Below are positions 6,166 to 62,679 of a DNA stretch of 64,000 bases, piece after piece. The stretch comes from a virus (Duplodnaviria > Heunggongvirae > Uroviricota > Caudoviricetes). The stretch is taken from IMG/VR virus record IMGVR_UViG_3300017565_000001, positions 141,741-205,740 of that record; one strand, written 5' to 3'. The position numbers and the translations under genes are program-made. The notes below the pieces were generated by a model. That model made no database searches, had not been told where the DNA came from, and saw only the letters and a program-made list of their open reading frames with translations. Position 1 is the stretch's first letter, and every line of letters begins with the position of its first letter.

Positions 6166-6864
6166 ATGAATACGGTAAACGAAACGGAGCAAGCGATGAC
6201 CGAAGACCTCCAGAAACGCAAAGCAGCAAAGGAACACCAGTTCAAGAAACTGGTCGAAGCTTTCCGGTATCGTCTTCTGGGTATGGCTACGTATGACAAG
6301 GAATGGTACAAGGCCCTGCAAGCTCTGGATTTTGGTATGGCCCATCATCCCGGCTTTCGCAAGGACAACGTGACTCCGGCCTTCATGCACCAGGTCCAGA
6401 TCGCCAGCCACATCATGACTATGCTGCCGCATCTGATGTTCCCGGTGCGCACCATTGTCGCCATTCTGCTTCATGACACTCCTGAAGATACCAACGTGAG
6501 CCACGAAGAAATTCGTGACATGTTTGGTGCTGAGTCGATGGTCGACATCGAATTGCTGACCAAAGAATATCGGGGCAAGAAGAAGGAACCCGAGGAATAC
6601 TTCATGAATCTGGCTATGAATCCCGTATCCAGTGTTGGTAAAGGTGGTGATCGCGTCAACAACCAACATACGATGGCCGGTGTGTTCAAGCTGGAAAAGC
6701 AAATCGAATACTGCAAGGAAACAGAAACCTGGTTTTTCAAGTTCCTGAAAGAAGCCCGGCGCCGTTTCCCGCAACAAGAATTGATTTACGAAAACCTGAA
6801 GTTCACGCTGCAAACCCAGCTGAACATCTTCCGATCCATTCACGCACAAGGACACGCAGCATGA
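6166..6864 (+). CDS. HD-domain RelA/SpoT-type (p)ppGpp hydrolase-like protein (small alarmone hydrolase)
   Basis: H..RK....P...H, LLHDTPED, LLTK and K.GDRVNN motifs of the RSH hydrolase domain. Confidence 0.75.
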   Translation: MNTVNETEQAMTEDLQKRKAAKEHQFKKLVEAFRYRLLGMATYDKEWYKALQALDFGMAHHPGFRKDNVTPAFMHQVQIASHIMTMLPHLMFPVRTIVAILLHDTPEDTNVSHEEIRDMFGAESMVDIELLTKEYRGKKKEPEEYFMNLAMNPVSSVGKGGDRVNNQHTMAGVFKLEKQIEYCKETETWFFKFLKEARRRFPQQELIYENLKFTLQTQLNIFRSIHAQGHAA

Positions 6865-30075: not shown

Positions 30076-30246
30076 AGTTGTTGACATGTGGCATTCCGTT
30101 TGCTAAAGTATGATCTGTGGTGCAGATTGCTAAATAGATTTGTCGCAACACTGCACAAAATTTTCACAAATAGTTATTGCAAACCCGAAAAGGTTCATGT
30201 ACTATTTGTTCTGTTGATTATTAAATTTCTCGAAAAGGAAACTTTC

Positions 30247-30357: not shown

Positions 30358-30420
30358 GCGTTCACCTAGCGAAAGCTAACAACCCTCGAAGCGTAATAGT
30401 TTCGGGGGTTTCGTGTTTTA
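30324..30420 (+). promoter_or_regulatory. attenuator 1: antiterminator 30324-30334/30380-30390 competing with terminator 30381-30392/30399-30410
   Basis: TTCGGGGGTTG pairs with CAACCCTCGAA (11 bp); AACCCTCGAAGC/GTTTCGGGGGTT (12 bp) followed by TCGTGTTTT. Confidence 0.8.
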
Positions 30421-30435
30421 GATGTTGAGATTTAC

Positions 30436-30522
30436 GGGTGGTAGGTGCGCTGGGCGCTAACTTGCCTCGAAAACAAGCCCCTCCAGTGATGGGGGATGGT
30501 TCGATTCCATTACTACCCGCCA
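30436..30522 (+). tRNA. tRNA-Ser(CGA), probably 8/4 acceptor/T-stem form
   Basis: GGGTGGTA/TACTACCC, long variable arm, G73, CCA. Confidence 0.8.
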
Positions 30523-30534
30523 AGAACGTTTCGT

Positions 30535-30619
30535 GTATCAGATGGTAAACTGGCTAAATCAGCTGTCTGTAAAACAGTCGCCTCCGGGCTTGTAGGTTCG
30601 ATTCCTACCTGATACACAA
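30535..30619 (+). tRNA. tRNA-Tyr(GTA)
   Basis: type II cloverleaf; ends ACAA (CCA not encoded). Confidence 0.9.
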
Positions 30620-30633
30620 AACGTTTTTGAAAT

Positions 30634-30718
30634 ATCCTGTGATGACGGCTGGGTACCGTCAGAAGACTTTCAATCTTCCCTGTTCCACAGTGGGGTTCGA
30701 TTCCCCCACAGGATACCA
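30634..30718 (+). tRNA. allo-tRNA-like species with TTC (Glu) anticodon, 8/4 fold, long variable arm
   Basis: ATCCTGTG/CACAGGAT; TGACGG/CCGTCA D-stem; GAAGA-CTTTCAA-TCTTC; CTGT/ACAG V-arm; GGGG/CCCC T-stem; CCA. Confidence 0.7.
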
Positions 30719-30727
30719 AGTTTTAAT

Positions 30728-30812
30728 GGGGATGCGGCTCAGATGGCGAGGGGCGGCTGACTGTAAATCAGTTCTTTCGGGTGAGTAGGTTCGAATCCTT
30801 CCATCCCCACCA
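30728..30812 (+). tRNA. tRNA-Tyr(GTA)
   Basis: cloverleaf with CCA. Confidence 0.95.
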
Positions 30813-30819
30813 AGTTTTT

Positions 30820-30895
30820 ACTCTGTTCGTCTATCGGTTAGGACGCTAGACTTTCAATCTGGAAAGACGGGTTCGACTCCCGTACAGAGTGCCAG
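30820..30895 (+). tRNA. tRNA-Glu(TTC)
   Basis: cloverleaf with CCA. Confidence 0.95.
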
Positions 30896-30905
30896 AATTA
30901 TTCCA

Positions 30906-30992
30906 GTCTTACTGATGAGCCCTAATGGGCGAAACAGTTGCAGGGAAAGATGGTGTTTCCGCCCCCATCAAGTATCTGTAGCTGTCTGAGAC
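30906..30992 (+). ncRNA. hammerhead ribozyme (type I); predicted cleavage after C30986
   Basis: stem I GTCTTA/TGAGAC, CTGATGA core, stem II GCCC/GGGC, GAAA, stem III CAGTTGCAG/CTGTAGCTG, GUC cleavage triplet. Confidence 0.9.
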
Positions 30993-31000
30993 ATGTTTGT

Positions 31001-31075
31001 ATTGCCGTTGACTTCTGGTGAGGTCTCCAGGCTTTCAACCTGGCTAGGCGAGTTCGATCCTCGTCGGCAATACAA
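31001..31075 (+). tRNA. tRNA-Glu(TTC)
   Basis: CCAGG-CTTTCAA-CCTGG; ends ACAA. Confidence 0.85.
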
Positions 31076-31086
31076 AGATGTTTCAT

Positions 31087-31183
31087 GTAGGGGATGTTCC
31101 GTAAGGCTGACGGTAAAATCGATAAAAGTGTGATGGGTGCTGCCCTAAACACCCCAGAGGTTCGAGTCCTCACCCCTACTCCA
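31087..31183 (+). ncRNA. tRNA-like RNA without a canonical anticodon loop
   Basis: GTAGGGG/CCCCTAC stem, T-arm GAGG-TTCGAGT-CCTC, TCCA end. Confidence 0.6.
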
Positions 31184-31192
31184 AGTTTTAAT

Positions 31193-31280
31193 GGGTTCCT
31201 TTCCCGCCGGCGGTCTGTAAAACCGTTGCCTAATAAGGTGGGTTGGTTGGCGTGAGGTTCGAAGCCTCGGGAACCCACCA
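31193..31280 (+). tRNA. non-canonical tRNA-Tyr(GTA)-like RNA lacking a normal D-arm
   Basis: GGGTTCC/GGAACCC, GCGGT-CTGTAAA-ACCGT, T-arm, CCA; only 10 nt between acceptor and anticodon arm. Confidence 0.7.
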
Positions 31281-31289
31281 AGTTTTAAT

Positions 31290-31364
31290 GCACCGTTCGT
31301 CTATCGGTTAGGACATCGCCCTTTCAAGGCGGCAAGATGGGTTCGATTCCCATACGGTGTGCCA
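31290..31364 (+). tRNA. tRNA-Glu(TTC)
   Basis: cloverleaf with CCA. Confidence 0.95.
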
Positions 31365-31421
31365 GTTGACCTCGTATTCATTTGATGCCATAATGGTAAG
31401 AATGTAAACGAGGAGAACGAT

Positions 31422-31646
31422 ATGGCTGATCGCGTGACCCTTCGGGGTAAGCTGATTGATGGGCAGTATGATCGCGAAATCGCGGATGCTGTTATTCAAG
31501 AAGCACGCAAGACGGTTGATGTCCCAACCCAGAACATTTACGTTTGTGGGTCCTGGGGTGGATACGTCACTATCAGTTGTAATGTACAAGGATTTTGTGA
31601 TGCCCTAGTTGTCGCTGCCCGGAACATGGGGCTTGACGTTCAATAA
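31422..31646 (+). CDS. hypothetical protein within tRNA array
   Basis: GAGGAG RBS, own promoter-like TTGAC..CATAAT. Confidence 0.7.
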   Translation: MADRVTLRGKLIDGQYDREIADAVIQEARKTVDVPTQNIYVCGSWGGYVTISCNVQGFCDALVVAARNMGLDVQ

Positions 31647-31655
31647 GGAGGCAAC

Positions 31656-31799
31656 ATGAGAGCATTTGGTAGTGTTCGTGGTAAATACTGTGAGTGGAGA
31701 TTCACTGGTAGATATTACGGACGAAGCAGAATTTTCAATGCGGGGAAACTTGAAATCAAGTCCCGCAAACGTGGACGGAAATGGTCCACAGATGATTGA
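31656..31799 (+). CDS. small basic peptide (47 aa)
   Basis: AAGGAGG RBS; MRAFGSVRGK... Confidence 0.45.
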   Translation: MRAFGSVRGKYCEWRFTGRYYGRSRIFNAGKLEIKSRKRGRKWSTDD

Positions 31800-31807
31800 C
31801 CGATTAC

Positions 31808-31881
31808 GCGGGTAAGCTCGAGGTGAGTCGCCGGCCTTCCAAGCCGCGCAGAGTTGGGTTCGATTCCCACTATCCGCTCCA
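31808..31881 (+). tRNA. tRNA-Gly(TCC)
   Basis: cloverleaf, U73, CCA. Confidence 0.9.
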
Positions 31882-31999
31882 GTTTTGAATGTGAGAGAAA
31901 TCTCCTGGCTAGTCACAAGGGAACGACAGAATCGGGGCAACGAGCCTTAACCTTGCCCGAAGAACGGAAATATCCGTCTACGTCGTTACGTTCGTTTTT

Positions 32000-32074
32000 G
32001 CAGGATTAATTCAGTGGTAGAATGTCTGCTTGCCAAGCAGAATGTCATCGGTTCGAATCCGATATCCTGCTCCA
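32000..32074 (+). tRNA. tRNA-Gly(GCC)
   Basis: cloverleaf, CCA. Confidence 0.95.
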
Positions 32075-32082
32075 AGTTTTAT

Positions 32083-32158
32083 GCGTGGGTAGCTCAGTTG
32101 GTAGAGTACCTGGTTGCCAACCAGGACGTCGCGGGTTCGAACCCCGTCCCACGCTCCA
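32083..32158 (+). tRNA. tRNA-Gly(GCC)
   Basis: cloverleaf, CCA. Confidence 0.95.
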
Positions 32159-32166
32159 GTTTACAT

Positions 32167-32257
32167 GTTCCGGTGGCCGAGTTGGCTTAGGCAGCGGTCT
32201 GCAAAACCGTTAGCGGGAGAAATCCCCACGCAGGTTCGAATCCTGTTCGGAACTCCA
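32167..32257 (+). tRNA. tRNA-Cys(GCA) with long variable arm
   Basis: GCGGT-CTGCAAA-ACCGT, GGGA-GAAA-TCCC V-arm, U73, CCA. Confidence 0.85.
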
Positions 32258-32330
32258 AGATGCTTGACTTTGATGCCATATGAACATAACATATGGCATC
32301 AATTGTTTTGAGCCACTGACAAGGAATCCA

Positions 32331-39205: not shown

Positions 39206-39319
39206 ATCTTCTCCTTAGTGTATCTTTCGATATATTTGGCTTTATTCTAGCGAAGAATATTGCCGTGCTAGTACACTATGGAGAAGGTTGTTCGCTCTTT
39301 AACAAAATGTGGTATTTGA

Positions 39320-39406
39320 CGCGGGCTGGTGTAATGCTAACACGCGGGGCTCATAACCCCGAGACATCTAATGCTCGTCCTGGTTCAAGTCCAGGGCCCG
39401 CTTCAA
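39320..39406 (+). tRNA. initiator-like tRNA-Met(CAT) with long variable region
   Basis: C1 mismatch, GGG/CCC pairs in the anticodon stem, 17-nt extra arm; no encoded CCA. Confidence 0.7.
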
Positions 39407-39425
39407 ATATCATATAGAAGGTTTT

Positions 39426-61254: not shown

Positions 61255-61426
61255 GGCAAGCGAACCGTGAAAAATGAGGAAACGAGCTCCTCGATTCACA
61301 CGGCAAAAAGAGAATCAAAGGGGCGGAGCTAGGGCATGAACACTGGGCGATAACCAGTTAGTAAGAACTAGTTCATATGTGAGTGTCTGTACGTTGGCAT
61401 TCACATACGTTCAGAGAGTTCTTTGT

Positions 61427-61503
61427 CTGGGATTAGGAAAGTCAGGTTAATCCATTTGGTTTGGAACCATAGGGCCCCGGTTCGAATCCGGGATCCCAGA
61501 CAA
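61427..61503 (+). tRNA. tRNA-Pro(TGG)
   Basis: cloverleaf; ends ACAA. Confidence 0.8.
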
Positions 61504-61539
61504 AGAGCTCACTGAACAGCAAAGAATGAAAATTCTTTG

Positions 61540-61619
61540 CTCCGCAGAATCCAAGCTTGGTGCAAGGACTTGACTGTTAATCAATGATTAGCTGGGTTCG
61601 ATCCCCAGATGCGGAGCAA
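61540..61619 (+). tRNA. tRNA-Asn(GTT)
   Basis: TTGA-CTGTTAA-TCAA, T-arm; ends GCAA. Confidence 0.8.
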
Positions 61620-61631
61620 AGAGTTTTCAAT

Positions 61632-61800: not shown

Positions 61801-61821
61801 GAAATCAAGAGATTATTTAGG

Positions 61822-61897
61822 GGTGGCTATAGTTCAATGGCTAGAATTGCTGACTGTGAATCAGCGGAAGAGGGATCGAAACCCTCTAGTCACCCCT
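61822..61897 (+). tRNA. tRNA-His(GTG)
   Basis: G-1:C73, GTG anticodon, atypical T-loop ATCGAAA. Confidence 0.9.
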
Positions 61898-61909
61898 AAA
61901 TGATCTCAT

Positions 61910-61985
61910 GCAGATGTGACAGTGATGGTTCATGTGCTAGTTTGAAAAACTAGATATGTTGGTTCGATCCCAACCGTCTGCACCA
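61910..61985 (+). tRNA. tRNA-Phe(GAA)
   Basis: CTAGT-TTGAAAA-ACTAG, CCA. Confidence 0.9.
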
Positions 61986-62571: not shown

Positions 62572-62593
62572 TATTTCTTTGAGCATGATTTGC

Positions 62594-62668
62594 TCCGGTG
62601 TAGCTCAGTGGTAGAGTAGCGGACTGTTAATCCGTTTGTCGCTGGTTCGAGCCCAGCCTCCGGAGCAA
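62594..62668 (+). tRNA. tRNA-Asn(GTT)
   Basis: cloverleaf; ends GCAA. Confidence 0.95.
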
Positions 62669-62679
62669 ATCATGTTTAT

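Follow-up and report, generated by a model that had tools for sequence, protein, structure and literature searches.

The question raised by this locus is what a hammerhead ribozyme does between two tRNA genes of a phage. To our knowledge, the function of phage hammerheads is still largely unknown. The DNA analysed here, called the window, is a stretch of 64 000 nucleotides (G000:C1:141741-205740) of a 424,529-bp virus record with direct terminal repeats. ARAGORN predicts 56 tRNAs in the whole genome and 29 in the window, all of the latter on the + strand. The hammerhead is located in a tRNA array preceded by a promoter-like site and a leader hairpin (table 1). Because a promoter-like site lies upstream and the first terminator-like site is found only at 32270-32302, a single long tRNA precursor is plausible, and the array is apparently one transcription unit. 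An earlier note on this DNA had placed the ribozyme between two tRNA-Glu genes and proposed that cleavage after position 30986 would split the common precursor; the annotation by ARAGORN and Rfam and the apparent single transcription unit agree with both points. A second promoter-like site (31366-31394; sigma-70-like, 10/12, extended TG) is present within the array, directly after tRNA-Glu 31290-31364.

Table 1. Features of the hammerhead locus and stalked tRNAs of the genome. Positions are those of the window, except where the record (G000:C1) is indicated.
Feature	Position	Strand	Description	Basis
Promoter-like site	30081-30109		before the array
Leader hairpin	30381-30410		before the array
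tRNA array	30436-32257	+	holds the hammerhead
Terminator-like site	32270-32302		first downstream of promoter and hairpin
tRNA-Glu(UUC) E	30820-30894	+	canonical, encoded CCA	ARAGORN; Rfam tRNA 57.7 bits
Spacer	30895-30905	+	GAAUUAUUCCA, A/U-rich, 11 nt	direct reading
Type I hammerhead ribozyme	30906-30992	+	strand of all array tRNAs	direct reading; MFE fold; descriptor
Stem I	30906-30911 / 30987-30992		GUCUUA/UGAGAC, 6 bp, one G.U
Core	30912-30918		CUGAUGA
Stem II	30919-30922 / 30927-30930		GCCC/GGGC, 4 bp; loop UAAU 30923-30926
GAAA	30931-30934
Stem III	30934-30944 / 30975-30985		11 bp, three G.U
Hairpin within stem III	30949-30953 / 30965-30969		GAUGG/CCAUC
Cleavage triplet	30984-30986		GUC; predicted scissile bond after C30986
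Stalk, 5' strand	30987-31000	+	first 6 nt UGAGAC, also 3' strand of stem I	fold; pair list; conformer energies
tRNA-Glu(UUC) F	31001-31072	+	full cloverleaf, no encoded CCA	Rfam tRNA 45.7 bits; fold
Stalk, 3' strand	31072-31085	+		fold; pair list; conformer energies
tRNA-like element G	31087-31183	+	CCA-ended	weak Rfam tRNA-Sec-like match, 23.2 bits (threshold 47); fold
Stalked tRNA-Tyr 30535	30521-30629		stalk
Stalked tRNA-Glu 31001 (F)	30987-31085		stalk
Stalked tRNA-Met 39320	39307-39415		stalk
Stalked tRNA-Pro 61427	61409-61517		stalk
Stalked tRNA-His 61823	61806-61910		stalk; sole tRNA-His of the genome	ARAGORN
Stalked tRNA-Asn 62594	62580-62678		stalk
Stalked candidate	61527-61629		encloses an Asn-like (GUU) tRNA, no ARAGORN call
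Stalked candidate	G000:C1:209687-209828		outside the window
Stalked candidate	G000:C1:215337-215437		outside the window

The motif is a complete, genuine type I hammerhead. Direct reading and the minimum free energy (MFE) fold confirm the earlier description: CUGAUGA, GAAA and GUC are joined by three paired stems of 6, 4 and 11 bp, and stem III carries an extra GAUGG/CCAUC hairpin. The invariant core residues C3-U4-G5-A6-N7-G8-A9 and G12-A13-A14 are present as CUGAUGA and GAA (30931-30933), and the A15.1-U16.1 pair as A30934-U30985, followed by the non-G residue 17, C30986. The topology is that of type I, with stems II and III closed and stem I open; G10.1-C11.1, which closes stem II, corresponds to G30919-C30930. 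The predicted energy of the hammerhead fold is -30.6 kcal/mol (z -2.98 relative to shuffled sequences).

The motif stands far beyond chance expectation. We applied a custom descriptor covering type I, II and III hammerheads to both strands of the whole genome, and the hammerhead of the array is its sole match. One hundred dinucleotide-preserving shuffles of the genome gave 0.31 weak matches per genome; stems of at least 6, 4 and 8 bp occurred in none of the 100, and the best total was 18 bp, compared with 21 for the real hammerhead. The Rfam hammerhead models, to which the earlier note had pointed, gave no match in the window at gathering thresholds, where tRNAs alone were returned. The scores were 13.8 bits for RF00163 (clan CL00010; gathering score 34), 22.7 for a merely local match to RF00008 (48.5) and 16.6 for RF03152 (56.3), the last aligned with a 34-nt insertion in stem III. 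According to the alignment, these low scores are due to a 51-nt insert in the long stem III and not to mismatches in the core. Together with the lack of conservation, they are what would be expected if a decayed spacer of tRNA size happened to resemble the hammerhead consensus. We consider such a chance origin extremely unlikely, as nothing comparable is found in the shuffled genomes, all 11 invariant core bases and 21 stem pairs are present and the hammerhead is the MFE fold.

The hammerhead was examined for tertiary contacts of loop II with stem I or the sequence flanking it. No convincing one was found, and activity at cellular Mg concentrations is therefore uncertain. The sole candidate is the sequence AUUA (30897-30900), 5 nt upstream of stem I, which is complementary to the UAAU of loop II and could possibly form a weak contact; we estimate that a 4-nt complement occurs in a flank of this size about 5 per cent of the time by chance.

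The two neighbours of the ribozyme are not equivalent. tRNA-Glu E, upstream, is followed after the predicted cut by a 3' trailer of 92 nt composed of the spacer and the ribozyme. tRNA-Glu F, downstream, was missed by ARAGORN and found by the Rfam model; its N73 is followed by CAAAG instead of CCA. The next element, G, has no normal anticodon loop and is not accepted by the standard models. These models also reject a second CCA-ended tRNA-like element (31190-31280), with a GUA loop and an odd D region.

The earlier note had described the sequence between the cut and tRNA-Glu F as a 14-nt leader. The distance is correct; the leader, however, is not free, as it forms the 5' strand of a 13-bp stalk. 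In the fold of 30987-31087 (-47.7 kcal/mol, z -6.86), the pairs of leader and trailer extend from U30987-A31085 at the outside to U31000-A31072 at the tRNA, interrupted by a single G.G mismatch (30995/31077), so that 13 extra base pairs are stacked on the 7-bp acceptor stem. The first base past the cut, U30987, is paired with A31085. Beyond this pair, C30986 faces U31086 and pairing is impossible, so that the scissile bond marks the precise end of the stalk. On the other side, element G begins 1-2 nt past the foot of the stalk, so that cleavage at the start of G would make the stalk an almost blunt helix. A reading of the stalked tRNA-Glu F as a Y RNA was rejected: no match to YrlA (RF02553) was found in 30800-31100 at E values up to 10, and no TROVE/Rsr gene was found in the phage genome.

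Stalk and ribozyme share a strand. The six bases UGAGAC (30987-30992) have two alternative partners: GUCUUA (30906-30911), with which they form stem I, and GUUUCA (31080-31085), with which they form the outer part of the stalk. The hammerhead is the MFE fold for transcripts ending at 30992, 31040, 31071 and 31079, and stays so when as many as 87 nt follow it. Once the full trailer is present, the predicted order is inverted, and the stalk conformer (-77.9 kcal/mol) is ahead of the hammerhead conformer (-69.3 kcal/mol) by about 8.6 kcal/mol.

From these structures we infer catalysis, its timing and every step after the cut. The explanation that we favour, with moderate confidence, is that the hammerhead cleaves itself co-transcriptionally after C30986 and that its task is to give the downstream RNA a 5' end that coincides with the foot of the stalk clamping the CCA-less tRNA-Glu F. 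The ribozyme would be complete once position 30992 is transcribed and would be the favoured fold for the next approximately 93 nt. Cleavage would leave an upstream block Ser-Tyr-Glu-Tyr-Glu, whose trailer would carry the ribozyme at its tip and a terminal 2',3'-cyclic phosphate, and a downstream product starting with a 5'-OH at U30987. As the trailer (31072-31085) emerges, UGAGAC would quit the 6-bp stem I and zip into the stalk, which extends the 7-bp acceptor stem by 13 bp. This strand transfer would release the product, make the cut irreversible and bury the new end in a helix, and any RNA still uncut when the trailer appears would be locked in an inactive form. Possible later steps are removal of the stalk, either by a double-stranded RNA nuclease or by RNase P and RNase Z once the A/U-rich inner stalk breathes, and addition of CCA by the phage nucleotidyltransferase.

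The complete core and three helices, the GUC site, the G10.1-C11.1 and A15.1-U16.1 pairs and the location on the right strand argue for this cut-and-transfer mechanism. The short interval between cut and lock, about 93 nt of transcription, counts against it. Bacterial RNase P is reportedly inhibited when base pairing lengthens the acceptor stem (PMC9433436); a stalked precursor thus plausibly needs another route to a defined 5' end.

The earlier note had read the ribozyme as a plain separator of the polycistronic pre-tRNA, parallel to the theta ribozymes, leaving an ordinary 14-nt leader for RNase P and reducing the dependence on host RNases. The location of the hammerhead in mid-operon, with no terminator nearby, is consistent with this, as are the type I hammerheads that abut tRNAs in about 24 other phage contigs and the theta ribozymes themselves, which are a phage use of ribozymes on tRNA transcripts (PMC10879173). 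We nevertheless consider it unlikely. The leader is paired with the trailer along its whole length, which is the kind of pairing reported to inhibit RNase P (PMC9433436), and a plain separator does not account for a cut that falls exactly on the stalk foot. Host or phage nucleases would still be needed, as the upstream tRNA keeps a 92-nt extension at its 3' end and the downstream tRNA is not released at its 5' end. The predicted cut matures no tRNA end, so that independence from host RNases does not follow; the theta parallel is also loose, since theta ribozymes release the 3' end of the upstream tRNA whereas the hammerhead would cut 92 nt past the upstream CCA.

The stalk exists in its own right, as a designed element. 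In six of the 57 tRNAs of the genome, leader and trailer add 13-17 base pairs; each of the six lacks CCA, which is absent from only about three of the other 51; we estimate the hypergeometric probability of this association at about 2e-6. The junction UUUG-N|tRNA|N73-CAAA is common to all six. tRNA-Glu F fits this informal class, with 13 bp, one mismatch and the junction UUUGU|tRNA|A-CAAAG. In the dense arrays, the feet of the stalks abut the neighbouring tRNAs, at distances of -2 and 4 nt for tRNA-Tyr, 5 and -1 nt for tRNA-His and 8 and 1 nt for tRNA-Asn. Three further stalked candidates, with helices of 20-21 bp and the same UUUG/CAAA junction, emerged when the whole genome was searched for closing helices of 17 bp or more (table 1). 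In other phage loci, a comparable extension was found for one of 604 tRNAs.

Among the six stalked tRNAs, the hammerhead is present at tRNA-Glu F only. Inspection by eye of the sequences upstream of the tRNA-Met and tRNA-Pro stalks found nothing recognizable as a second ribozyme. The ribozyme is therefore not required for the stalk pathway, as at least five other stalked tRNAs have none. The stalk of tRNA-Asn at 62580 opens with the near-identical UGAG.CAUG and has no ribozyme, indicating that the 5' strand of the hammerhead was fitted to the stalk and not the reverse. Between a tRNA-Ser and the foot of the tRNA-Met stalk there are about 100 nt of non-tRNA sequence (39206-39306) with a long hairpin, in which no ribozyme motif was recognized. 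This segment is placed as the hammerhead is before tRNA-Glu F.

Homologues of the unit formed by the hammerhead and tRNA-Glu F were sought in several ways. The neighbouring 352-aa protein led to 42 loci in relatives, none with a syntenic tRNA array or a credible hammerhead, and the hammerhead core pattern is absent from the whole records of the five closest relatives, except for one probable chance match. A core-specific scan of IMG/VR returned six unrelated hammerheads in protein-gene contexts, and a scan of metagenome contigs for a hammerhead with an F-type T-arm gave four chance matches in coding DNA. A homologue of the unit was thus found neither in IMG/VR, nor in the metagenome contigs, nor in the records of the five closest relatives, so covariation support is absent for this copy.

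Such a distribution might be expected if the ribozyme were a passenger, that is, a mobile or recently acquired cassette, or a relic in the spacer, with no role for the tRNAs and perhaps slow or inactive in vivo. The nearest look-alike core (contig L008) precedes a protein gene, from which it appears that hammerhead cassettes change context, and the other stalked tRNAs manage without a ribozyme. Against this, the core has no defects, the first six bases of the stalk, itself an independent element, find their exact complement in the 5' strand of stem I, and the cut site is the stalk foot, a fit that random insertion would rarely give. On these grounds, we regard a mere passenger as quite improbable.

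Hammerheads adjacent to tRNAs were collected from other phages by three IMG/VR pattern scans and checked with the descriptor and ARAGORN. A type I hammerhead starts 2-11 nt after a tRNA in about 24 contigs, and a hammerhead directly precedes a tRNA or tRNA-like RNA in about 20. In unrelated phages, the predicted cut is at +1 of a tRNA-Tyr (L017, twice; L089, L095, L096, L105, L108 and L109); it is at G-1 of a tRNA-His in L099, 1 nt before a tRNA-Gly in L101, and 10-15 nt before a tRNA-Asn or tRNA-His in L141 and L140, respectively. Cuts at +1 of tRNA-Tyr or G-1 of tRNA-His would make the 5' end without RNase P. In L012 (6031-6224), a type I hammerhead within a phage tRNA array heads a YrlA RNA (Rfam 69.7 bits), and the 3' strand of its stem I is the start of the YrlA terminal stem; in other contigs, the predicted cut is at the start of uncatalogued tRNA-like RNAs. 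The two copies in L017, a contig of 347 kb, are tandem hammerhead/tRNA-Tyr units (6476-6756).

In every inspected case, the downstream RNA opens with a terminal helix whose first bases serve as the 3' strand of stem I. The hammerhead before tRNA-Glu F follows the same principle, its terminal helix being the stalk. A general test of whether the 3' products of hammerheads start a terminal helix was underpowered, with 8-bp helices arising by chance within 450 nt. Some hammerheads located just after tRNAs (L013, L022, L025, L028 and L036) have a 5' flank of stem I that pairs with loop II (GUCG/CGAC, AGUCG/CGACU and GUCC/GGAC). This covarying pseudoknot of flank and loop II is common to a subfamily of tRNA-array hammerheads.

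The frequent position of hammerheads 2-11 nt past a tRNA CCA in phage contigs could also suggest that the ribozyme serves the upstream tRNA. Its ribozyme-tipped trailer, ending in a 2',3'-cyclic phosphate, would block 3' exonucleases and delay or gate the maturation of tRNA-Glu E, or mark it for the RtcB RNA ligase encoded by the phage (G000:C1:57503-58618, E 8e-124). The end types produced by hammerheads are substrates of RtcB. Short spacers are normal in tRNA arrays, however, so that adjacency of hammerheads and tRNAs is expected anyway. At the other loci, it is the downstream RNA that contributes the 3' strand of stem I, and no feature ties the ribozyme to tRNA-Glu E; a function for the upstream tRNA appears very unlikely.

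Besides RtcB, the phage encodes a CCA-adding-type nucleotidyltransferase (G000:C1:100867-101235, E 1.8e-32). Both genes are consistent with RNA-end repair and CCA addition, and neither is proof for the hammerhead locus. A search for an RNase III gene in the phage genome found none. A wider proposal, which we hold only tentatively, is that the stalk-clamped CCA-less tRNAs constitute a 'pro-tRNA' pathway run by the phage. They would leave the operon as helix-capped precursors resistant to host RNase P, exonucleases and 5'-end-dependent nucleases, and their maturation would be completed by factors of the phage, its CCA-adding enzyme among them. The hammerhead might then be the entry step for tRNA-Glu F, a one-shot switch (cut, then strand transfer) that times or doses its release.

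The phage hammerheads described in 2011 by Perreault et al. (PMC3088659) flank protein genes; the paper considers cleavage between such genes and draws no connection to tRNA genes. The hammerhead of the array has the same catalytic core, three-helix junction, open stem I and GUC site as the type I hammerheads of phages and prophages (RF00163, CL00010), and shares their phage origin and polycistronic setting. It differs from them by its 51-nt stem III element, its location in a tRNA operon and the strand shared with a tRNA stalk. The theta ribozymes are likewise small self-cleaving ribozymes beside phage tRNA genes, for which an action in cis on the tRNA transcript, the scission of 3' trailers, has been proposed in a paper that does not mention hammerheads (Kienbeck et al. 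2024, PMC10879173). They have an HDV-like nested double pseudoknot and cut at their own 5' end, directly after the tRNA, whereas the element described here has a hammerhead fold and does not belong to this class. Theta ribozymes free the 3' end of the upstream tRNA; the hammerhead would cut at its 3' side and set a downstream 5' end 14 nt before the tRNA body. The leader-trailer helices of bacterial rRNAs, substrates of RNase III (PMC10250234), are also paired flanks forming a helix of about 20 bp around a mature RNA. In our case, the enclosed RNA is a tRNA, the helix is stacked on its acceptor stem, the phage has no detected RNase III gene and one end is predicted to be made by a ribozyme.

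Similar in arrangement are the hammerheads fused to the 5' side of tRNAs and of YrlA (L017, L089, L095, L096, L099, L105, L108, L109 and L012). They have the same type I topology, with the 3' strand of stem I as the start of the downstream helix, which therefore competes with stem I after the cut. Their predicted cuts are at +1 (G-1 for tRNA-His) of CCA-bearing tRNAs and would replace RNase P; the cut described here is predicted at position -14 of a CCA-less tRNA, where the stalk has its foot. Full-text searches of the literature brought up no description of natural hammerhead-tRNA arrangements in phages, and none of leader-trailer stalks of phage tRNAs.

The ribozyme class itself is well known. 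What the analysis adds is its exact coupling to a stalk-clamped CCA-less tRNA, together with the predicted structural switch. This anatomy points to a specific and testable job, since the cut coincides to the nucleotide with the stalk foot and the substrate strand is common to two mutually exclusive structures; it predicts a co-transcriptional switch that cuts and then hands over the strand. It also ties the hammerheads found at the 5' sides of tRNAs to CCA-less tRNAs closed by leader-trailer stalks. Engineered hammerhead-tRNA transcripts, in which the cut is at +1, give tRNAs with defined 5' ends in vitro. They likewise have a hammerhead upstream in cis and use the downstream sequence as the substrate strand; they are synthetic and cut at the first tRNA nucleotide, whereas the arrangement described here is natural, is predicted to cut at the foot of a stalk and may offer a natural template for self-processing synthetic tRNA arrays.
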